Source: a phage
DNA length: 38,682 nucleotides
Sequence record: PQ400058.1
Direction: 5' to 3' (one strand)
This document shows, piece after piece, positions 8,391 through 38,682 of the stretch. How positions within the stretch are numbered: position 1 is the first letter of the stretch; the number at the start of each line of letters is the position of its first letter. Both the position numbers and the translations under genes were made by a program. The notes below the pieces were generated by a model. It saw only the letters and a program-made list of their open reading frames with translations, did no database searches and was not told the origin of the DNA.

Positions 8391-8915
8391 TTATTCCTCA
8401 GGCTTCTCAGGCCAGTCATAGAAAGGCAGTACACTCAGGTCTACTTTGTATACAGCAAGACGGTAAATTCGCCACGCGTTTAGGAGACCTTCTAATCCAT
8501 CCTCCCCAAGTGCCATGAAGTCAGCATACTGCTCAATCTTCTTGGAGGCCATAGAGACTAGACTAGCCTTCTGGTTCTCAAAGTATCGCGGATACCAAGT
8601 TAGCTTCTCACCATCCCACCACCACTGCATCATATTGTAACGAGAGTATTCAGCTGGGATTTCCTCAAGTTCAACAACACCAGCAGAACCCTGAACGGCT
8701 AACTCCTGAACATCCTGTTCACACTGAATTACCGAACCGTCTTTGGCATAGACAAGTTTCCATGTATCCTCACGGAATGTCTTACGTAGTTCATACCAGT
8801 CATTCCCATTCTCGTCCTTTGAGAAGCCAACTCCGTGGTCCAGAAGGTCTGCATTCTCTTTGGTGCGCTCTGGAATATAGTTTACGAAGTTCTTATAGTG
8901 GCGTAAAGTCTTCAT
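8391..8915 (-). CDS. Tail fibre assembly (Tfa-like) chaperone, 174 aa; not present in T7
   Basis: ATG 8915 with GGGGGAGGG RBS 16 nt after the gp17 stop; C-terminus ...LLNAWRIYRLAVYKVDLSVLPFYDWPEKPEE resembles the lambda Tfa C-terminus (...[29 protein letters not shown]) as recalled. Confidence 0.7.
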   Translation of the reverse strand: MKTLRHYKNFVNYIPERTKENADLLDHGVGFSKDENGNDWYELRKTFREDTWKLVYAKDGSVIQCEQDVQELAVQGSAGVVELEEIPAEYSRYNMMQWWWDGEKLTWYPRYFENQKASLVSMASKKIEQYADFMALGEDGLEGLLNAWRIYRLAVYKVDLSVLPFYDWPEKPEE

Positions 8916-8931
8916 GTTGTACCCTCCCCCT

Positions 8932-10608
8932 TTAGTAAATATTAAAGCGTTGACCATCGTTGCGTACATACTGCATAACACGCCACTGGCAACCATCTAC
9001 CGCACCATCAGCGTTACCGTTTGTGATTCCTGTGATCACCTTACCGCCACCATCTTCTATGCCGTAAGCATTCCACAGTTGCGACCAGTTAACTCCACCC
9101 ATCGCAATGTGGTTAACGGTATTTGCAACAAGCCAGCCAGCTAGATGACCATGACCACCCCATACAGAGCCTGCAATGTTTCCGTCAGTGGACATTGCGG
9201 CACCACCTGCCTTAATCGTAGTTGGGAATTGAACCTCGCCATTTGGGTTTAGCCAAATGTCATAAGATGTCGCTTGAGATGCTTCCGGTTTCCACCGGAT
9301 TAGGCCGTTGCCGTTCGTAGAACCACCTCGAACCCATCCAATTTCTAACCCTGCATCGTAGAAACTCCAACGAGTGTTACAGACCCATCCACCTTGGGTC
9401 AAATCACCCGGACCATATGCCACCGTCTTAACGGCAGTATTGGCCTGATTAGTAACACCTAGCGGTTTGTTGAATCCTTCTACCTGCAAACCATTGTAGC
9501 AATGCATGAAGTCCCCGAAGTGCATCTCCCACGTAGCCGAATCATTAGCTTTACTTTGAACCTGAAATGGAACATGCCAGTCCCCTCTATGTGGGTGCTT
9601 AATGGCCCAAAACGTATTTGATACATATTGTCCCTCAGCAGGGTTATACTCATGTACCATCTGCCCCATAGAGCCAGCTTCGGCAGTTGCCCTCAGGGTT
9701 GAAGCACGATTAGCAATAAGTTCACCGTTAAACTTAGCAGTAGCCGCCCACGAAACAACGTGGTCTTGGCTTACTTCCTCAATGGCACCTGCAAGTGCAT
9801 TCCAGTTACCAAGTTTGTCTGCCTCCAACTTAGCGCGGTCTGCTTGCTGTTCTGCCGAATGGGCAGAGTTAGCGGATGCCGTGGCATAGTTCTCAGCGTT
9901 TACCTCAGATTGATGCGCAGCAGTAGCAGAGTTACCAGCAGATGTAGCGTATTGACCAGCCGTATTCTTGAACTGCTCGGCTTCGTCTCTGAAACCCTTG
10001 GTCTCATCACGCCACTGCTTCGTATTCGTAGCGTTAGTGCTGGACTCGTTCTTAAAGCCCTCCGCTTGATTTCTGAAAGTCTCAGCCTCATTGCGGAACT
10101 GTAGGGCCTCATTACGCGCCTGCCATGAGTTCTGGTTCATGGTCTTAAGTTGACCAAACGGAACAGCGTCACGGTCATCCACGGCGTTCGCTAGGTTCAC
10201 AATTCGACGACCACGGGCATCCAAGTGACCATCATTATTGACACCGATAGTATCCGCAGTGAGGTCACGGGCCTCTTCTGCTACGTGCATCGTTTGAATC
10301 TGAGCGACGTTAAGGTCATATGCACGGAGGATTGAACCATCCGTAAAGTCAACCAATCGGTCTGTCGTGGAGGTTACTCGACGTAACTCAATGGTCGTGT
10401 AGCCATCAGCTGTACCCCAAGCCTTGGTCAGTGAGATGGTAGTGCGAGTAGCAAAGCGGTAGTCTGTATTAATAGTAAGGACCTTTCGGTCTACGCCAAT
10501 AAGGGTTACTACTACGAACTTACGGGCTAGATACTCAAACGGGATATTAAAATCACGAGTGGAGCCGTCTAACTGGTAAGTCAAAACGGTTTTAATTACG
10601 TTAGCCAT
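8932..10608 (-). CDS. 17: Tail fibre protein gp17, 558 aa: T7-like N-terminal attachment and coiled-coil region, non-T7 distal receptor-binding region
   Basis: Track ORF MANVIKTVLTYQLDGSTRDFNIPFEYLARKF...; matches recalled T7 gp17 to about residue 265 then diverges (…HPHRGDWH…GGHGHLAGW…QRFNIY). Confidence 0.9.
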   Translation of the reverse strand: MANVIKTVLTYQLDGSTRDFNIPFEYLARKFVVVTLIGVDRKVLTINTDYRFATRTTISLTKAWGTADGYTTIELRRVTSTTDRLVDFTDGSILRAYDLNVAQIQTMHVAEEARDLTADTIGVNNDGHLDARGRRIVNLANAVDDRDAVPFGQLKTMNQNSWQARNEALQFRNEAETFRNQAEGFKNESSTNATNTKQWRDETKGFRDEAEQFKNTAGQYATSAGNSATAAHQSEVNAENYATASANSAHSAEQQADRAKLEADKLGNWNALAGAIEEVSQDHVVSWAATAKFNGELIANRASTLRATAEAGSMGQMVHEYNPAEGQYVSNTFWAIKHPHRGDWHVPFQVQSKANDSATWEMHFGDFMHCYNGLQVEGFNKPLGVTNQANTAVKTVAYGPGDLTQGGWVCNTRWSFYDAGLEIGWVRGGSTNGNGLIRWKPEASQATSYDIWLNPNGEVQFPTTIKAGGAAMSTDGNIAGSVWGGHGHLAGWLVANTVNHIAMGGVNWSQLWNAYGIEDGGGKVITGITNGNADGAVDGCQWRVMQYVRNDGQRFNIY

Positions 10609-10660: not shown

Positions 10661-10683
10661 TCTCCCTATAGTGAGTCGTATTA
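10661..10683 (-). promoter_or_regulatory. T7 RNAP promoter phi17
   Basis: Minus strand TAATACGACTCACTATAGGGAGA; its TAA is the stop codon of gene 16. Confidence 0.9.
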
Positions 10684-13600
10684 TTTCCTAGGTGTCTCCT
10701 TGATGTGGATACCGTTGGCCTCATAAATTTTCATAATTAGTTGCTGCGTGATAGGGTCGTTCGGAACAATCTCACGCATGGTATTAAACATCCCTGTACG
10801 AAACTCCATCTCGGTAGCCTTGTTAGGCGCTTTCAGTAGCGATACAGCATTAAGTGCCGTACCACCGACCTGCCCTGCGAACCCCAAAGCAGGAATCTGA
10901 TCACCTAGAGCACCACTAATCATACCAGTCACTTGACGACCTGTTACCGCTTTTGTGCGATCGCGTTCTTCTGGTTGCTTCGGTAGTACCGTGGAGCGTG
11001 TGTACTTATAGGTATCATCACCAAACACACCAGCGATCATATCGTAGATGCTAAGTGGCGAACCTAAGTGTGAGCTACGGGAGATAGACGCATGAGCAAT
11101 CATCTTCGGGTCTAGTGCCATCTTAAGGTACTCCTTACGTTTGTCCTCAGGTAAGGCAGCGGCCTTTAGGTGCGCCTGTCCAACGAAGTAGCCACCAGCA
11201 AGCCCACAGGAAACAATGTGAGTTAACGCTTGGTCTAACGCACGGTTGTTCTTTGTGGCCTCATAGAAGCTACGGACAAATCGAGCATTAAGCGACTTGA
11301 TAACGAAGTTCTTAAATTGCATCACCATCTTTACGCCAGCACCATACGCAACGGAATCTTGAGAGGAAATCTTATGTGGTCGCATGATTGTCTCTCCAGC
11401 CACTTTGTCAGCAAGCCTCCACAAATCCATTGTGCGTGGGTCGTAGGTGAACGCCCTTTTGTCCTTGATTGTGAACTTACCGTTAGCATCACGAGTGGTG
11501 TGGTCCCGAAATAATTGCTTGATACCATTCCACTGCTCAGGACTGATTGAGGCAGACTTAAGATAATTTGCCTTACCAAACTTGGCACCAGTCCCTGATA
11601 GCACAGCACTTGCAATATCCCCTAGCACACCCTGACGGGCTGCGTCGATAATGTAGTTTGTTGTTCCATTAAGCATTACCGTCCATGGGGAGCGGGCTGC
11701 TAACTCCTGCGTCCCGAAACGAAGAGTACCAACCACATTAGCCAACACAGCGTTGGTGTCTGTAGACTCCCTAAGTCTGCGAATGTGATCTTCACGACTC
11801 GGACGGATTAGCTGGTCTAGTTCCTTCCCGAATACCATACTGTGGAGTTCTTTAATCTCAGAGGCTCGCATTGGTTTCCTACGGTTAACCCAGTCGTTAA
11901 TCATAGGGATTCCATGAGTCACCGCAGAGACATTACCTTTGATCAACATAGCACCTATCTCCGTGAAGTTCTGGAGAGGCATATAGAAGTTCTTAGCGAA
12001 GAACGTCAGGTCATTCAGAGAGCGTAAAGCTGTCCCTAAAGCACCTTCTGGGCTACGACGGGCGCGACCAGTTAGAATCTTCACTGTATCCTTAAGAGCT
12101 TCTACTTCGCCCTTCAACTTCCCGTTGCCTTCGGCCTGCTTACTCAGTGCCATAATTTCATCCTTGAGTTCCTTGGTAGTTTTACCAGAGCTACCCATGA
12201 TAGCAATATCGCCATTTACACGACGGTCATATGCTGGCATAAGGATGCGCTGGCTGAACACTCGAATGTCATCTACTGAGAACATAGAGCCATCTGGTAA
12301 CGTGATTGGTACATCGGTGTCAAAGAGGTTACGTGCTTCCAGAAAGTTATTGTTCTCGATACCAACAAGCCCCGTGATATTCTCATCAACAATAGAAGAC
12401 GCCGAGAACTGGTCTGTATGGGAGATACCATATGCCTTGTCCATAGCATACTTCCGGACCATTTCGTGTGTTACGTCTTTAGTTGACTTAAGCCCGTTGA
12501 CTTCCATCAGGTGCTCGTCGATACGTGCCTTAACTGGTGGACGCAGATAGTATGACGCAAGGGAGCTTTCAGCGATAGCCCTCTGGAAAGCCTCTCGACT
12601 CCCCAAACGTTGAATATGAAAATTCTTCAATTGGGTGTCATACACTCGCGGAATGTATGTACCTTTGTTGCGACTGTCGGGGAAGATACTAACCGCCTTT
12701 GAATTACCAAACACAGCAGGGTTTTCCATAAGTTCACGCTTGAGGTCATAGTGACCTTTAACGTGGCGCATCAGGTCTAGCTCTTTGGGAGACAAGTTGA
12801 CCTGCATTTCAGGATGTTCGATAGCAAGAGCAATTTTACGGTCGATGAACTCAACGGCCTCTGCTTTGCTCATCTTAGGCGCACCTACTGTGAACTCAGG
12901 GTCTTTCATGACTTCCTTCATCTTATCATAGTATAGGTTCCAATCGCGGTTATCGTTGGATGATAGCCTACTATGGATATCATCAGCGGTCGAGCCGAAC
13001 TTACCGTTAGACCCTGATTCCATACCAGTTGGAGAGCGCACTAGGTCACGCGCAATGGAGCGAACTCCCGTGTTCTCAGAGCGTAGTGTCTTAAGGCCAA
13101 TCTCAGTGAACCCACCTAAGGAGATACCTCTGGCTGAACGCTCAGGATTTATCGCCTCAAACTCACTTAGTGTCTGTGGGTTCAGTGGGTTAGTGTCACT
13201 GAGGATTTGACCTTGAGGGAGGACGACTGCACCTGGCTCGGTGTCCAATGGTGCGTAGTTAACCCCACTGTACTCTCGGTCGAATTTGGTACTGTCTGTG
13301 TTCATCTTAGACATGTCCACAGAGTTGGCGTTAAAGGCAGTCTCACGGGCTTCCATACGCATCAACGGTCCGACGAACTCGTTGTTAAACTCAGCCTCAG
13401 GTTTGCTACGCCTCAATCCAGCGGCTATAGTGTCACTGATTGCAGACATTCCTGCCCCAAACACAAGGCCACCTAGTACCGCACCAGTATAATTAGCGTC
13501 TCCACCAACTATAGACGTTCGCAACCCTTCTGAGGCCATGTTAATAGCTGCACTCTCAGCACCGACAACAAGAGCCTTATTGATTAACTTAAATCCCTTA

Positions 13601-14655
13601 CCTGTTACACCAACCAACGGAACATACGATAGAGGGTCGAATGCCGCACCAATAACGCCAGCGGAAAGCTGTGCCCCGATACCTGCATCAGCTTTCTTTA
13701 GGTCATTCTCGTAGTTACGCTTAGCTAGATTGATAAGGTCATCCCAGTTCTCACCGTCACCACCAGTAACCACAGAGTAATAACTAGGAGGCAACCCACT
13801 GTTACGTAGTTTGTCCAAGTCTTCCTTGGTAGGCTGGTAGGAGTTCCAACGCGTAGGCGTGATAACATCCTTAAACACATCAAAACCATTATCGAGGCGA
13901 CCAGCACGGAAGGCCATGCCGAGGACTGAGTTGTCAATTTCTGCACTTGCAGCGTCTTTGAATCCGAAGAATATTGAGCGGTCGTCATACTCAGATAGTT
14001 CCTGTTTATGGTGGTCCCAAAAGTCAGTAGCGAATGATTTCGCTGGGGCCTCCTGCTCGATACCTTTAATGTCCAATCCAGTTGACTCAGGGATAGCATC
14101 CGTTACTTTGCGCTTCCCTTCTACCTGAATGTCTCCTAAACCAACATCAGAAGGGATACCTTTACCCTTTGGGGTGATTCCACCGAACGCTTCCAACTGA
14201 CCACTCATTGGCGACCTAGCTACATCCATGAGGTTACGTATGTAGTTACGACCCTCCTCGGAGATAGCTGAGAAGTCGCCCTTTGTGTATGCTTCAAGTT
14301 GTGGACTCCCTAAGCGTCCCTCACCTTGATTGTACGCAAGGGCAGCTTTGAGTTCATCCCCATCGAATTTACTCACCAGTCCAGCAAGGTGCTTGGCAGC
14401 AGCATCAATAGCCAACTCAGGGTTCAGTCGGTCGTCGTCTGGACCATCGGTGACTCGCAACCCCATAGCCTTAGCTGTAGCCTTGGTGAATTGCATCATG
14501 CCTAACGGTCCAGTCTTAGATTTAGCTGTTGGTTGAAACCGTGATTCTGTCCAAGCGACTTTACGTAAAAGGTCATAAGAGACCCCTGTGGCATCAGCCG
14601 CCTTCTGGAACAGACCATCATACTCACTTGGTACGTTCTTATCGTACTTATCCAT
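10681..14655 (-). CDS. 16: Internal virion (core) protein gp16 with N-terminal lytic transglycosylase domain
   Basis: Track ORF 1324 aa MDKYDKNVPSEYDGLFQKAADATGVSYDLLRKVAWTESRF...GPLGMMQFTKATAKAMG. Confidence 0.93.
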   Translation of the reverse strand: MDKYDKNVPSEYDGLFQKAADATGVSYDLLRKVAWTESRFQPTAKSKTGPLGMMQFTKATAKAMGLRVTDGPDDDRLNPELAIDAAAKHLAGLVSKFDGDELKAALAYNQGEGRLGSPQLEAYTKGDFSAISEEGRNYIRNLMDVARSPMSGQLEAFGGITPKGKGIPSDVGLGDIQVEGKRKVTDAIPESTGLDIKGIEQEAPAKSFATDFWDHHKQELSEYDDRSIFFGFKDAASAEIDNSVLGMAFRAGRLDNGFDVFKDVITPTRWNSYQPTKEDLDKLRNSGLPPSYYSVVTGGDGENWDDLINLAKRNYENDLKKADAGIGAQLSAGVIGAAFDPLSYVPLVGVTGKGFKLINKALVVGAESAAINMASEGLRTSIVGGDANYTGAVLGGLVFGAGMSAISDTIAAGLRRSKPEAEFNNEFVGPLMRMEARETAFNANSVDMSKMNTDSTKFDREYSGVNYAPLDTEPGAVVLPQGQILSDTNPLNPQTLSEFEAINPERSARGISLGGFTEIGLKTLRSENTGVRSIARDLVRSPTGMESGSNGKFGSTADDIHSRLSSNDNRDWNLYYDKMKEVMKDPEFTVGAPKMSKAEAVEFIDRKIALAIEHPEMQVNLSPKELDLMRHVKGHYDLKRELMENPAVFGNSKAVSIFPDSRNKGTYIPRVYDTQLKNFHIQRLGSREAFQRAIAESSLASYYLRPPVKARIDEHLMEVNGLKSTKDVTHEMVRKYAMDKAYGISHTDQFSASSIVDENITGLVGIENNNFLEARNLFDTDVPITLPDGSMFSVDDIRVFSQRILMPAYDRRVNGDIAIMGSSGKTTKELKDEIMALSKQAEGNGKLKGEVEALKDTVKILTGRARRSPEGALGTALRSLNDLTFFAKNFYMPLQNFTEIGAMLIKGNVSAVTHGIPMINDWVNRRKPMRASEIKELHSMVFGKELDQLIRPSREDHIRRLRESTDTNAVLANVVGTLRFGTQELAARSPWTVMLNGTTNYIIDAARQGVLGDIASAVLSGTGAKFGKANYLKSASISPEQWNGIKQLFRDHTTRDANGKFTIKDKRAFTYDPRTMDLWRLADKVAGETIMRPHKISSQDSVAYGAGVKMVMQFKNFVIKSLNARFVRSFYEATKNNRALDQALTHIVSCGLAGGYFVGQAHLKAAALPEDKRKEYLKMALDPKMIAHASISRSSHLGSPLSIYDMIAGVFGDDTYKYTRSTVLPKQPEERDRTKAVTGRQVTGMISGALGDQIPALGFAGQVGGTALNAVSLLKAPNKATEMEFRTGMFNTMREIVPNDPITQQLIMKIYEANGIHIKETPRK

Positions 14656-23404: not shown

Positions 23405-23427
23405 TCTCCCTATAGTGAGTCGTATTA
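23405..23427 (-). promoter_or_regulatory. T7 RNAP promoter phi9
   Basis: Minus strand TAATACGACTCACTATAGGGAGA; overlaps the gene 8 stop. Confidence 0.9.
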
Positions 23428-25035
23428 AATGCCCGGCTGTAGACCTACGGAATCAGCAGCAGCAGCCATAGCCTCAGGTGAAGCTGTAGCCTGTGCAGCC
23501 ATACCTTGAGCCAGCGCAGCAGCACCATTATCCATACCCATTTGCATAGACTGTTGGGCCATCTTCTGTTGCTTCTGTTCTTCGGTGAGAAGGATACCAG
23601 AAGTGTCAATACCGATAGCGTTCGCAATGCGCAACTTAATCATCGCAAGGTTGATGTCAGGGTCATCGCGCATAGGAGCTAGGGCAGCCCACGCAGTGAC
23701 ACAACGCTCCAACTTATCAAGGTCTTGACCTCGACCAATTGCTTCCAGACCTGTACTAATAGTTGGCTCTACGGCTTCCTTAGGTAACTCAGGAATCTGT
23801 TGCGTGGCTTGTAGTTGCTTCAAGAGCACTCGTACCAGAGGCAATTGTAATTCTTGAGAAAGGATAGAGTAGACACCGCCCAGAGTATCTTCAAGTTCAG
23901 AAGCTACATACCGAATCTCTTCGGCGGTCACACGTTCGCCTGTACGCTGAACCGCAGAGTTCAACATGAAGGCAAACGAAAGGCGAGCCTCGATAGCGTC
24001 ACTTACGGCTTTAGCTACAGTAAAGTCTGCTTGCTTCTCCAGTTGGAGGAACGAGATGTCTTCTGGACGACCTGTAACGAAGTCACCAGTCTGAGCTTTG
24101 GTAAGTCGGCGTGGCTGGGTGATACCAGCAGGATTCACTAAGCCGATAACCTTAGAGCTAATCATGGACATCTTGACGATAGCCTCTTGGAGATTCTCAA
24201 GGGACCGTAAGTCACCTAAGTATTCCTCAATGTACGAACGACCGTAGGATTCACCATCCAGACGAACCATTCGAATCGGGATGTATGGGCAAGCCTCTTT
24301 AGGGTAAGACCCATCGGAGCCTTGTATCTCCATACCTTCAACCTCTTCGTAGCGGAGATATTCGTCTGACTCTTCGTCCAAGTAAATGTGAGTGTACACA
24401 TCAATGGTCTCATCAGGTTTCTTCTCGCCGCCTTGACCTTCTACAGCCTTACGGATGTCCTCAGGGAGAGCACCAAAAGCTATCTGGTCACGAGTCACCA
24501 TTTGCAGAACGTTGCCGAATGCGTCTCGTTGGACCACATAAGAAGACAATCGGTACAGCTTCATGGGATTATAGTTTGACCCTTCTGGTTCCGGTAGGTA
24601 CAGCAGGACGTTACCAGCTACGACTAACTGCTTGAGAGCCTCAAAGAGAGTCACTCGGTAACTGTTAGACTCAATGTAGTTCATGATGATACGCTCTACC
24701 ATCGAGAGACCCTCATCGACCTTAGCGAGTCCATCGGGGTCGTCCAGTAACTGTTTAGCCTCATACTCAGAGATGGTCAGCTTCATCCACGTTTGCATCG
24801 GGAAGAGAGCCAGCATGAGCTTAGAGGCCAAGTTATTGAGACCGCGAGCACCCACAGCTTGCCACGGAGTCGTGTAGTCTGTTGATGCGTTATCGGAATC
24901 CTTAGGGAAGAGGGACGGAATGGTGTACTGAGCGCAGTTTTGAGCACGAGTCTCATACGGAGCGCGGTCGTTCTTCAATCGCTCATAGACCGACTTTGCG
25001 CCTTCCTCGGCTAGACCTGTACGCTTCTCAGCCAT
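23425..25035 (-). CDS. 8: Portal (head-tail connector) protein gp8
   Basis: Track ORF 536 aa MAEKRTGLAEEGAKSVYERLKNDRAPYETRAQN... Confidence 0.93.
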   Translation of the reverse strand: MAEKRTGLAEEGAKSVYERLKNDRAPYETRAQNCAQYTIPSLFPKDSDNASTDYTTPWQAVGARGLNNLASKLMLALFPMQTWMKLTISEYEAKQLLDDPDGLAKVDEGLSMVERIIMNYIESNSYRVTLFEALKQLVVAGNVLLYLPEPEGSNYNPMKLYRLSSYVVQRDAFGNVLQMVTRDQIAFGALPEDIRKAVEGQGGEKKPDETIDVYTHIYLDEESDEYLRYEEVEGMEIQGSDGSYPKEACPYIPIRMVRLDGESYGRSYIEEYLGDLRSLENLQEAIVKMSMISSKVIGLVNPAGITQPRRLTKAQTGDFVTGRPEDISFLQLEKQADFTVAKAVSDAIEARLSFAFMLNSAVQRTGERVTAEEIRYVASELEDTLGGVYSILSQELQLPLVRVLLKQLQATQQIPELPKEAVEPTISTGLEAIGRGQDLDKLERCVTAWAALAPMRDDPDINLAMIKLRIANAIGIDTSGILLTEEQKQQKMAQQSMQMGMDNGAAALAQGMAAQATASPEAMAAAADSVGLQPGI

Positions 25036-31176: not shown

Positions 31177-31199
31177 GTCTCCTTTAGTGAGTCGTATTG
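31177..31199 (-). promoter_or_regulatory. T7 RNAP promoter phi4.3
   Basis: Minus strand CAATACGACTCACTAAAGGAGAC. Confidence 0.85.
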
Positions 31200-31217
31200 A
31201 AATCGTCAAGAATCCTG

Positions 31218-32924
<1,707 letters not shown>

Positions 32925-32986: not shown

Positions 32987-33009
32987 TCTCCCTTTAGTGA
33001 GTTCAATTA
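32987..33009 (-). promoter_or_regulatory. T7 RNAP promoter phi3.8-like, here driving gene 4 directly
   Basis: Minus strand TAATTGAACTCACTAAAGGGAGA followed by the CCACAACGGTTTCCC leader hairpin. Confidence 0.85.
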
Positions 33010-33010
33010 A

Positions 33011-33466
33011 TTATCCACGGTCAGAAGTGACCAGTTCGTTCTTCTCCCACCAACGCTTAAGGTCGAACGATGGGCAAGCCTTAGGTGCCACATCGTGATG
33101 TGCGCGAAGAACAGCGCCTTCGTACTTAGCCAGAAGTGTGACAAGCAGTGAGCGGAGGGATTGCATTTGGGCTGGCGTAAAGTTAGCGTCGAACTTGCCT
33201 TTATCGTCGATACCGCCTACAAGGCAGACACCAATAGAGTTGTGGTTGTAACCCTTAGCGTGAGAGCCTACAGCCATCTCATCTCGGCCTTCCTCCACAG
33301 TACCATCGCGCTTGATGATAAAGTGATATCCCACATCGAGCCAACCTTGCTCTTTGTGCCACTGGCGAATCTCACGGACACCAACATTCTGACTCGGCTT
33401 GGTAGCAGAGCAGTGAACAAAGATTGCGTCGGTAGATTCACGTTGTTTAAACTGTACACGAGCCAT
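33011..33466 (-). CDS. 3.5: Lysozyme / N-acetylmuramoyl-L-alanine amidase gp3.5
   Basis: Track ORF 151 aa MARVQFKQRESTDAIFVHCSATKPSQNVGVREIRQWHK... Confidence 0.95.
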   Translation of the reverse strand: MARVQFKQRESTDAIFVHCSATKPSQNVGVREIRQWHKEQGWLDVGYHFIIKRDGTVEEGRDEMAVGSHAKGYNHNSIGVCLVGGIDDKGKFDANFTPAQMQSLRSLLVTLLAKYEGAVLRAHHDVAPKACPSFDLKRWWEKNELVTSDRG

Positions 33467-34665: not shown

Positions 34666-34685
34666 TCTCCCAATAGTGAGTCGTA

Positions 34686-34688
<3 letters not shown>
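34666..34688 (-). promoter_or_regulatory. T7 RNAP promoter phi2.5
   Basis: Minus strand TAATACGACTCACTATTGGGAGA; overlaps the gene 2 stop. Confidence 0.85.
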
Positions 34689-34993
<305 letters not shown>

Positions 34994-35798: not shown

Positions 35799-35821
35799 GT
35801 CTCCTTTAGTGAGTCGTATTA
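35799..35821 (-). promoter_or_regulatory. T7 RNAP promoter phi1.6
   Basis: Minus strand TAATACGACTCACTAAAGGAGAC; overlaps the gene 1.5 stop. Confidence 0.85.
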
Positions 35822-35908
35822 GGCGTGACCATCTGGCATATCGTCATCACTACAGTGGAGCGAAAGGCATCCTATGATGACAATGAGTAATGGCATTAAG
35901 TACATCAT
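35819..35908 (-). CDS. 1.5: gp1.5, 29 aa
   Basis: Hand translation MMYLMPLLIVIIGCLSLHCSDDDMPDGHA; ATG 35908 with AGGAGG 8 nt upstream. Confidence 0.7.
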   Translation of the reverse strand: MMYLMPLLIVIIGCLSLHCSDDDMPDGHA

Positions 35909-35915
35909 GATGTGT

Positions 35916-35938
35916 ACCTCCTTTAGTGAGTCGTATTA
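35916..35938 (-). promoter_or_regulatory. T7 RNAP promoter phi1.5
   Basis: Minus strand TAATACGACTCACTAAAGGAGGT. Confidence 0.85.
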
Positions 35939-35940
35939 AA

Positions 35941-35972
35941 CGCAGAAAAGCCCACCCTAAGGTGAGCCAGTG
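35941..35972 (-). terminator. Early terminator TE-like hairpin after the ligase gene
   Basis: Minus-strand RNA GGCUCACC-UUAG-GGUGGGCU followed by UUUCUG; position as T7 TE. Confidence 0.5.
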
Positions 35973-35975
35973 TGT

Positions 35976-36995
35976 TTACATCTTCTCTTGAGGGTTGTCC
36001 TCGGTGCCACGGAAGCAGGTGAAGGAGGGGTGTCTGAGACTCCCATCGTTAGTTACCTCCATAAATCCAATCTGGCAAGCCCAGCCATTATAGTAGTCCT
36101 CGCCATGTTCTTTAACGTTAGCTGTAAATTCATCCATTAAGGCGCGAGAGATGTTATTGGCATCGACAAGACGACCAGTCTCAAGAAGCACCTTGAATCC
36201 AATTACCTTACCTTCGTTAGCAAGTCCTTCTGTTCCCCAGTTTACACCATTAATGATTCCGTCAGCTTCCTCAAGAGGCTTAAGTTTCCACCAGCCGGAC
36301 TTCTTACCGCGCTTGTAGATGCACATCGGGTCTTTCACAATGAGACCCTCATGTCCTTCTTCACGCTTCTTCTCGTACAGTTGCTGTAGTTCTACCATAT
36401 CGTAGACCTCGTAAGACTCAGCCGCTTGCCATTCGATTTCAGGGAAGTATTCCTGTAGCAGAGGCAGCATGTTCTTAACGTGTTCCTGCATGAGCAACGT
36501 CATGACATCACAGTCTTCCCCAGACTCCACGATGTGCAGAGGGAGGATAGCGTACAGTCGGACACTCAGATGTTTGGTATCCAACGCGAACTCAACCTTG
36601 GACCCCTTGAGTGGTGGTACACCGCCAACGTCGAACTCAAAGTTATTCTTGTTGAGCCACTTGGTACGCAGTAGGCCGGACCCTGTGTTAAAGTCTACGC
36701 CCTTGACCATTAGTTCCCCATCGAGCATAAAGCCATCCTTGTAGAAACAACGGTCATCGTTAAGCAGACGCTTCCAGCGAACATCAAACCCGTTTAAGTG
36801 CTCCAGTGCCGGAATCGTTTTAGATACACGAGAGAGCCAGCAACTGTTAGCTGTATTGTCTACGCAGATGTTACCGCGCACACCATCGTACTTAATGTCA
36901 GCGATAAGATACCCAGCGTTATCCAGAGCTTTCTTAATGGCAGACTCTACGAAAGATACTGCCTTGTATGGTGAAGTCTTAAAGTTAATAATCAT
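35976..36995 (-). CDS. 1.3: ATP-dependent DNA ligase gp1.3
   Basis: Track ORF 339 aa MIINFKTSPYKAVSFVESAIKKALDNAGYLIADIKYDGVRGN... (KYDGVR ligase motif I). Confidence 0.93.
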   Translation of the reverse strand: MIINFKTSPYKAVSFVESAIKKALDNAGYLIADIKYDGVRGNICVDNTANSCWLSRVSKTIPALEHLNGFDVRWKRLLNDDRCFYKDGFMLDGELMVKGVDFNTGSGLLRTKWLNKNNFEFDVGGVPPLKGSKVEFALDTKHLSVRLYAILPLHIVESGEDCDVMTLLMQEHVKNMLPLLQEYFPEIEWQAAESYEVYDMVELQQLYEKKREEGHEGLIVKDPMCIYKRGKKSGWWKLKPLEEADGIINGVNWGTEGLANEGKVIGFKVLLETGRLVDANNISRALMDEFTANVKEHGEDYYNGWACQIGFMEVTNDGSLRHPSFTCFRGTEDNPQEKM

Positions 36996-37405
36996 ATGTA
37001 TTTCCTCAGTTTGCCATTTCGTATGTAGTGTATTGTTGAAGCAGCCACATTAAGTGCCCTTGCTAGCTCCCTGCCGGAGCGAGGGTCCGTCCGTATCATA
37101 TCGACCTGCTCATTAGTTATCTTTCTAGCACCACGGCCTTTGATAGCCATGTCTCTAAGGTTGTCTGCCTGTGTGCCCTTGGTTAGATGTGCAGGATTTA
37201 CACACCACCTATTGTCACAGGAGTGTAGGACTATATCGCTCTTATTCAACTCACCGTTGAACAGAATGTACGAAGCCCTATGGGCATATATAGGCTTACC
37301 ATGCAGGCGGAACCGTCCGTAACCATTGGGCTGGATACTACCAATCCAACGCAAACAGTCACCACATGGTTCGGTCTTATTGTTGAATCGTTCTATGTCG
37401 TTCAT
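36992..37405 (-). CDS. HNH-family (homing-type) endonuclease, 137 aa; not at this locus in T7
   Basis: Track ORF MNDIERFNNKTEPCGDCLRW...HGKPIYAHRASYILFNGELNKSDIVLHSCDNRWCVNPAHL...; HNH motif; ATG 5 nt after phi1.3; stop overlaps ligase ATG (ATGA). Confidence 0.85.
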   Translation of the reverse strand: MNDIERFNNKTEPCGDCLRWIGSIQPNGYGRFRLHGKPIYAHRASYILFNGELNKSDIVLHSCDNRWCVNPAHLTKGTQADNLRDMAIKGRGARKITNEQVDMIRTDPRSGRELARALNVAASTIHYIRNGKLRKYI

Positions 37406-37409
37406 TGGT

Positions 37410-37432
37410 TTACCCTATACTGAGTCGTATTA
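37410..37432 (-). promoter_or_regulatory. T7 RNAP promoter phi1.3
   Basis: Minus strand TAATACGACTCAGTATAGGGTAA; overlaps the gene 1.2 stop. Confidence 0.85.
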
Positions 37433-37702
37433 CTTCCAGTGCTTCATATCACTGTGAACCTTACGGAGCCATTCCGTCTGTGCATTACAGCGAACGTCTT
37501 CGTCTGACTGTTCGAAACACTTAGCGGTCAGCATTAAGCCATCCCGTAAGACCACTCTAAGTGTCTCTCCGGCGACCATCCGTCGCTGTGTAAAATCCTC
37601 ATAGCGATAAGCCTCAACTACCACATTTGCATCGTGGTCTTCTTTAAGTCGTTCGATAGCATCTTTGTATGCTGCTAGATTTCCGCTGTATAAACGTCCC
37701 AT
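37430..37702 (-). CDS. 1.2: gp1.2-like protein (host dGTPase inhibitor in T7), 90 aa
   Basis: ATG 37702 one nt after the 1.1 stop; MGRLYSGNLAAYKDAIERLKEDHD...KHWK; N-terminus and position as T7 gp1.2. Confidence 0.75.
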   Translation of the reverse strand: MGRLYSGNLAAYKDAIERLKEDHDANVVVEAYRYEDFTQRRMVAGETLRVVLRDGLMLTAKCFEQSDEDVRCNAQTEWLRKVHSDMKHWK

Positions 37703-38016: not shown

Positions 38017-38682
38017 TTACGCGAACGCGAAGTCTGACTTAAGGATGTCTTGGAGATTCAAGTTACCTTTAGCCGGAAGTGCTGGCATTTTGTCCAATTG
38101 AGACTCATGCAACTGGTCAGCGAACTGGTCATAGAAGTCAGCAAGTACATCACAAGACTCATAGGTGTCCACCATCGTTTCACGCACAGCTTTGAACAGG
38201 TTGGCAGCGTCAGCCGGAATGGTCCCGAAGGAGTCGTGAATCAGTGCAAACGATTCGATTCCATACTTCTCGTGTGCCCACACTACAGTCTTACGCAGAT
38301 GGCTACCGTCTTGGCTGTGTACAAAGTTAGGAGCGATGCCAGACTCCTGCTTGTGAGCGTCAATCTCGCTATCTTTGTTGGTGTTAATGGTCGGCTGTAA
38401 GCGGAACTGACCAAGGAACATCAGGTTCAAGCGAGTCTGAATTGGCTTCTTGTATTCCTGCCACACTGGGAACCCATCAGGAGTTACCCAATGCACAGCG
38501 CAACGCTTGCGAAGAATCTCGCCAGTCTTCTTATCTTTGACCTCAGCAGCCAGCAGCTTAGCGGCAGACTTGAGCCAGTTCATAGCCTCTACAGCGGCTA
38601 CTACAGTCACGCTCACAGCTTCCCAAATCAGTTTCGCCATGTAACCAGCAGCCTGATTCGGTTGAGTGAACATAATACCCTT
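38017..38682 (-). CDS. 1: T7-type RNA polymerase (gene 1), C-terminal 221 codons; 5' part runs off window end and resumes at window start
   Basis: Frame open from 38682 (KGIMFTQPNQAAGYMAKLIWE...) to stop TAA 38017-38019; ends ...LQDILKSDFAFA. Confidence 0.93.
   Translation of the reverse strand, partial: KGIMFTQPNQAAGYMAKLIWEAVSVTVVAAVEAMNWLKSAAKLLAAEVKDKKTGEILRKRCAVHWVTPDGFPVWQEYKKPIQTRLNLMFLGQFRLQPTINTNKDSEIDAHKQESGIAPNFVHSQDGSHLRKTVVWAHEKYGIESFALIHDSFGTIPADAANLFKAVRETMVDTYESCDVLADFYDQFADQLHESQLDKMPALPAKGNLNLQDILKSDFAFA

Follow-up and report, generated by a model that had tools for sequence, protein, structure and literature searches.

At positions 10661–10683 of the window, by which we mean the whole stretch of phage DNA analysed here (sequence record PQ400058.1, 38,682 nt) and whose numbering is used throughout, lies the promoter phi17, an exact copy of the 23-bp T7 promoter consensus TAATACGACTCACTATAGGGAGA, which spans −17 to +6. 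The genes of the window are on the minus strand, as is phi17. The TAA that opens the promoter, at 10683–10681, is at the same time the stop codon of gene 16 (10681–14655, minus strand), whose product, an internal virion protein of 1324 aa, contains a transglycosylase domain. This protein is 66% identical to T7 gp16 over 1315 aa and matches phrog_342 at profile positions 4–1234 of 1235. The original prediction had placed such a dual-use triplet at this junction and at four others, and inspection of 10681–10683, read on the minus strand, bore it out for phi17 and gene 16.

The window is a Teseptimavirus (T7-like) genome collinear with T7. With a query of 24.7 kb, 95% of which was covered, the nucleotide identity to T7 is 91%, a divergence of about 9%, and its closest phage records, Bas102 and Bas104, are at best 93–94% identical. 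A tblastn search with the T7 proteome found the T7 gene order kept, with nearly all T7 genes present on the minus strand; for genes 1.4, 3.8, 4.1, 5.3 and 7.7, the T7 proteins gave no orthologous match in the window at the T7 positions. The sequence breaks inside gene 1, the RNA polymerase gene, at 1–3 and 38680–38682. As gene 1 is thereby split over both window ends and the T7 order is retained, the window is a complete, circularly permuted T7-like genome. When the ends are joined, 19 nt are absent with respect to T7 (GCCAGCTATTGATTCCGGC, codons 656–662), a gap that looks like an assembly or trimming artefact rather than biology.

Over the parts that are present, the RNA polymerase is 98% identical to that of T7. 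Both its specificity loop (aa 739–770) and the region of the AT-rich recognition loop (residues 85–110) are identical to those of T7, so that the promoters of the window would be expected to be used as they are in T7. The T7-type promoter sites detected by a consensus scan number 17 and lie without exception on the minus strand. Compared side by side with T7, each has one of the 17 promoters of that phage as its ortholog; 14 of the window sites open with TAA. Among the T7-type promoter strings are TAATACGACTCAC, shared by the window and T7, and TAATACGACTC, that of an intact promoter. It is worth mentioning that the unfused promoter phi1.1A (window 38008, minus strand) opens with TAA here and with CAA in T7, and that its −17 position is T or C among relatives.

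Walking upstream in frame from each promoter TAA (−17 to −15), combined with tblastn of T7 proteins, showed that exactly five of these triplets terminate real genes, all on the minus strand. Besides phi17, the promoter phi9 (23405–23427) is an exact match to the consensus, and its TAA at 23427–23425 ends gene 8 (23425–25035), which encodes the portal or head-tail connector protein (536 aa, phrog_449, 98% identity to T7 gp8). In phi2.5 (34666–34688, TAATACGACTCACTATTGGGAGA) the TAA at 34688–34686 is the stop of gene 2 (34686–34880), whose 64-aa product is the host RNA polymerase inhibitor (phrog_1307, 97% identity to T7 gp2). The stop of gene 1.5 (35819–35908; 29 aa, 29/29 of phrog_12128, 93% identity to T7 gp1.5) is the TAA at 35821–35819 of phi1.6 (35799–35821, TAATACGACTCACTAAAGGAGAC). 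Finally, phi1.3 (37410–37432, TAATACGACTCAGTATAGGGTAA) provides with its TAA at 37432–37430 the stop of gene 1.2 (37430–37702), coding for a 90-aa protein of the dGTPase inhibitor family (phrog_2949, 85/85); the gene starts with an ATG at 37702, preceded by a GGGAGGG Shine-Dalgarno sequence. The pairings phi17/16, phi9/8, phi2.5/2, phi1.3/1.2 and phi1.6/1.5 are thus all correct by in-frame walk and homology. Mismatches to the consensus number 0 in phi17 and phi9, 1 in phi2.5, 3 in phi1.3 and 5 in phi1.6. The window phi1.6 is identical to T7 phi1.6, phi1.3 differs from its T7 counterpart at +4/+5 only and phi2.5 only in the +1 to +5 region. Judging from this identity to mapped T7 promoters, the five predicted promoters presumably fire in the PQ400058.1 phage, with initiation at the +1 G.

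The pairings would be mistaken if the stops were mis-assigned, that is, if the real genes ended earlier and the TAA merely closed a non-coding tail. Gene 1.2 could raise this suspicion, its product being just 38% identical to T7 gp1.2 and its mechanically called ORF (127 aa from a TTG) being longer than the real gene. Against this, each of the five proteins covers its PHROG family profile over practically the full length and aligns to its last residues, which argues that none of the five stops is mis-assigned. Moreover, gp1.2 ends in HWK followed by the stop as does its T3 counterpart (KHWK), the T7 and K11 genes likewise end in tggaag (W-K) before the stop, and the same stops are found in T7 record V01146. 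Mis-assignment can therefore be given almost no credence, and the profile C-termini, matched at all five junctions, answer the doubt that the original prediction had itself raised.

TAA triplets are common at the AT-rich edge of promoters, and some could lie in frame with upstream ORFs by accident. Short coincidental ORFs of this kind do occur: the TAA of phi3.8 closes an ORF of 45 codons from a TTG or 28 codons from an ATG, which is contained within gene 3.5, in a different frame, and probably does not represent a gene. For lack of homology support and because of this position, it was rejected as a sixth fusion. Yet two of the ORFs ended by the five promoter TAAs are 536 and 1324 codons long. 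In addition, 29 of the 763 coding-strand TAA triplets in the window end a gene, and finding 5 stops among the 14 promoter TAAs has a hypergeometric probability of 8.8e-5. Where a gene precedes one of the remaining promoters, a gap of 1, 8, 13, 20, 30, 37, 44, 81 or 83 nt separates its stop from −17. Taken together with the hypergeometric probability, these gaps indicate that exact fusion at five sites forms a distinct class rather than the tail of the spacer distribution.

The smallest of these gaps belongs to the gene 3.5/phi3.8 junction (32987–33013, minus strand), where the gene 3.5 stop TAA at 33013–33011 and the promoter at 32987–33009 are separated by 1 nt (TAAtTAATTGAAC), which makes it a near-fusion. 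At two further junctions the window departs from T7. In T7, the gene 4.2 stop is the −17 TAA of phi4.3, whereas the window phi4.3 (31177–31199, minus strand, CAATACGACTCACTAAAGGAGAC) carries C at −17. The gene 4.2 ORF (31184–31495, minus strand) crosses this region in another frame and its stop has moved to the TAA at −4 to −2 (31186–31184). The stretch that leads from the end of gene 4 to phi4.3 (window 31177–31245, minus strand) has a 40-nt deletion with respect to T7. The promoter phi1.5 (35916–35938, minus strand) has kept its TAA, which in T7 terminates gene 1.4; here it is no gene stop because gene 1.4 is absent. In this part of the window (35939–35978, minus strand), the early terminator hairpin stands after gene 1.3, with phi1.5 immediately behind it.

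In order to place the five junctions among relatives, we surveyed 184 related loci around genes 2.5, 8 and 17, obtained by three scans of viral contigs. For each ortholog the gene stop was located and the next promoter core was then searched downstream of it as CA[CG]TA with a G-rich start. A detector based on a CACTA[TA]AG core with at most 1 mismatch was discarded, since it missed phi2.5-type and T3 CACTAAC-type promoters and made false calls if started upstream of the stop. Two kinds of residual calls, a fusion at −15 after gene 1.5 at locus L011 and fusions at −16 after gene 19, are probably false and were left uncounted. Since the loci are interrelated and overlap in part with T7, T3 and K11, T7 itself being included, the counts below measure conservation and not independent events.

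Fusion was found at 74 of 76 loci for 1.2/phi1.3, with the stop at −17 in T7- and T3-type promoters and at −18, as TAA or TGA, in the K11 type. For 8/phi9 it was found at 85 of 89, mostly as TAA at −17 in the T7 and T3 types and as TAA at −18 in the K11 type. At 16/phi17, 25 of 29 loci were fused (T7 type, TAA at −17; T3 type at −15; K11 at −18). The 2/phi2.5 junction was fused at 63 of 85 loci, with another 18 showing a 1-nt gap, and the K11-type stop here is a TAG at −14. For 1.5/phi1.6, fusion with TAA at −17 was seen at 14 of the 15 T7-type loci in which phi1.6 was detected downstream of the stop; phi1.6 is absent in about 10 relatives, in which the gene 1.5 TAA is directly followed by a ribosome-binding site. 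By contrast, control junctions at the surveyed loci were essentially never fused: the gap is usually 7–11 nt after gene 1 (fused at 1 of 78 loci), 2–29 nt after gene 6.3, 20–37 nt after gene 12 and mostly about 80 nt after gene 19. Such conservation (74/76, 85/89 and 25/29 against practically none in the controls) refutes accidental framing as the origin of the fusions, which we now regard as extremely improbable. The fusions are kept at the same junctions across the T7-, T3- and K11-type promoter groups. The arrangement is ancestral to the sampled Studiervirinae and has survived changes in promoter specificity via small register shifts.

The tight packing read into these junctions by the original prediction is the right reading. 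Its further claim, that the fusions constrain how the junctions can evolve, is borne out by their conservation at the same junctions, by the −17 pattern and by an experiment in T7. Fused promoters of the T7 type invariably carry T at −17; in unfused ones this base is T at 14 and C at 5 loci after gene 1, and T at 30, C at 16 and A at 4 loci after gene 12. This contrast is partly circular, as the base at −17 is what defines fusion, and it is descriptive only, the loci being phylogenetically related; it fits a constraint and can be taken as suggestive. The experiment, a 2018 study, replaced T7 phi9 together with the gene 8 stop, which resulted in a 25-aa extension of the gene 8 product (PMC6068830). 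The additional loss of fitness came close to three times that caused by knocking out the promoter, and the evolved lines regained an earlier stop (PMC6068830).

A constraint is thus present, but it is not a rigid one. In the window and its relatives the stop is found in registers −18, −17, −15, −14 and −4, and it can be TAA, TGA or TAG; short spacers occasionally occur as well. The 3.5/phi3.8 junction, which reads TAAtTAATTGAAC (TAAtTAA) in both the window and T7, is fused as TAATTGAAC at locus L007, and loci L018 and L074 are also fused there at −17 with variant promoters; all three are T7-type relatives. The 9/phi10 spacer among relatives is 13, 12, 3, 2 or 0 nt long. At one locus gene 1.5 reads TAAtacttcTAATACGACTC, a 9-nt insertion leaving 6 nt from the stop to −17; at two loci, L007 being one of them, a TAG ends gene 1.2 prematurely, two codons ahead of the TAA, and one locus has TAG at −17 after gene 8. 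The consensus promoter contains stops in one frame only, the TAA at −17 and a TAG at −2 to +1. Owing to this second in-frame stop, the upstream protein would gain just 5 residues if the TAA of phi1.3, phi9 or phi17 were hit by a point mutation; the computed extensions are 11 residues at phi2.5 and 19 at phi1.6. With a backup TAG, register shifts and short spacers in relatives, the constraint on the TAA is soft.

Several regions of the window differ from T7 by local replacement or insertion. Gene 1.2 (37430–37702, minus strand) is far more divergent than its neighbours, its product sharing 38% identity with T7 gp1.2 and 54% with T3 gp1.2. Its flanks include a phi1.1B identical to that of T7 and a phi1.3 that is off at +4/+5 only. 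Sequence comparison presents gene 1.2 as locally mosaic, with the shared ...tggaagTAA joint as its boundary. The space separating phi1.3 from the ligase gene 1.3, occupied in T7 by a short leader only, holds an ORF of 137 aa (36992–37405, minus strand, phrog_59) for an HNH endonuclease 38–39% identical to T7 gp2.8 and gp7.7; it is probably a homing-endonuclease insertion. In the gene 17 region (8391–10608, minus strand), the match of the 558-aa product to T7 gp17 is limited to the first 296 residues, and gene 17 is followed by an overlapping gene for a 201-aa tail-fibre assembly protein (phrog_136) that is absent from T7. This region represents a swap of the receptor-binding module that brought its own chaperone.

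We are highly confident that the five fusions are dual-use triplets arising from genome compaction, in which the constraints on both roles are coupled; no observation contradicts this. At the DNA level, TAATA at −17 to −13 would serve the phage RNA polymerase as the AT-rich upstream part of its promoter. Transcription of T7-type genomes yields long polycistronic RNAs that overlap and run across internal promoters, and in a read-through RNA started farther upstream the same TAA would become the UAA at which the ribosomes of the upstream gene terminate. Because the two roles act on different molecules, one on DNA and the other on RNA, they do not interfere mechanistically. Coupling of stop and promoter is evolutionary only, in that loss of the T at −17 or replacement of the promoter also removes the stop. 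The arrangement is old, having been inherited at 1.2/phi1.3, 2/phi2.5, 8/phi9 and 16/phi17 throughout the sampled Studiervirinae despite the change in promoter specificity. We infer that the fusions arose through loss of the spacer between the gene's own TAA and that of the promoter. The stepwise spacer lengths seen among relatives at 9/phi10, and TAAtTAA against TAA at 3.5/phi3.8, count in favour of the compaction reading.

A functional device has also to be considered. Termination of ribosomes just before the promoter or the RNase III leader could insulate translation, or the fusion could act as a joint for module recombination that keeps both stop and promoter intact. In line with such a device, the fusion outlasts changes in promoter specificity, and the stops of the consensus promoter lie in one frame only, which is the frame used. 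A T7-type promoter located exactly at the T3 gene 16 stop may be read as a recombination footprint, and the ...tggaagTAA joint of the window is the place where a T3-leaning gene 1.2 and a T7-type phi1.3 meet. However, ribosomes work on RNA and the polymerase on DNA, so direct interplay is unexpected; the essential late promoters phi6.5, phi10 and phi13 are unfused in the window, with gaps of 13–30 nt; and relatives exist with spacers of 1–9 nt. We therefore consider such a device quite improbable. A dedicated regulatory role is unnecessary for explaining the data and is without support here.

Coming back to compaction, it should be noted that only 3 nt are saved per junction, which makes compaction alone a weak selective force. 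Fusion may persist mainly because no simple mutation undoes the junction. Perhaps the fused junctions are the end state of a one-way ratchet, in which a microhomology deletion between the two TAAs is hard to reverse, and have later become conserved crossover points for module exchange between phages with different polymerases. We put this forward tentatively and hold it to be rather unlikely. Hints in this direction come from the polymorphism at 3.5/phi3.8 (TAAtTAATTGAAC or TAATTGAAC) together with the series of spacer lengths at 9/phi10, from the gene 16 stop of T3 with its T7-type promoter, and from the divergent gene 1.2 of the window, nearer to that of T3 than to that of T7 and joined to a T7-type phi1.3.

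The value of the finding lies in annotation and engineering. Whenever phi1.3, phi1.6, phi2.5, phi9 or phi17 is deleted, replaced or recoded in the PQ400058.1 phage or a relative, the TAA has to be kept or the upstream protein will be extended, as happened accidentally at phi9/gene 8 in T7 with a large fitness cost (PMC6068830). The fusions also offer a small and clean case of one triplet under two selective constraints. The finding raises no new question.

Compact phage operons contain overlapping stop and start signals such as ATGA and TAATG. The promoter TAA can be likened to these overlaps, as in both one short sequence would provide two signals in consequence of tight packing. Both signals of ATGA and TAATG, however, are translational and can couple mechanistically, whereas those of the promoter TAA are one transcriptional, on DNA, and one translational, on RNA.

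The T3 (NC_003298) and K11 (NC_011043) records show promoters overlapping CDS ends by 2–6 nt at the same junctions. Both phages share with the window the fusions 1.2/phi1.3, 2/phi2.5, 8/phi9 and 16/phi17, but their promoter specificity differs (AATTAACCCTCAC in T3, AATTAGGGCACAC in K11), and the stop is placed at −18 (tAATTA...), at −17 or at −14 (TAA or TAG inside ATTAAC or ATTAGG). The junction 1.05/phi1.1 is fused in both T3 and K11, and 9/phi10 and 3.7/phi3.8 are fused in T3; all of these are unfused in the window. At 32757–32779 of T3 (L002), a T7-type promoter sequence lies at the gene 16 stop, and according to the record it is not used by the T3 polymerase. Its TAA is still the gene 16 stop, so that the function in translation is kept although the one in transcription is not.

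The closest comparison is with T7 itself. In the T7 record V01146 of 1983, with the annotation of Dunn and Studier, the CDS end coincides with promoter position −15 at seven junctions, after genes 1.2, 1.4, 1.5, 2, 4.2, 8 and 16. T7 shares the five fusions of the window in the same register and with the same TAATACGACTCAC promoters, and has two more, gene 1.4/phi1.5 and gene 4.2/phi4.3. The window departs from T7 in its divergent gene 1.2, in the HNH endonuclease gene that follows phi1.3 and in its tail-fibre tip. The stop-in-promoter feature, which the original prediction had not noted to be a documented one, is known already from T7 and the phages related to it; the window is another member, with fusions at 5 of the 7 T7 junctions.
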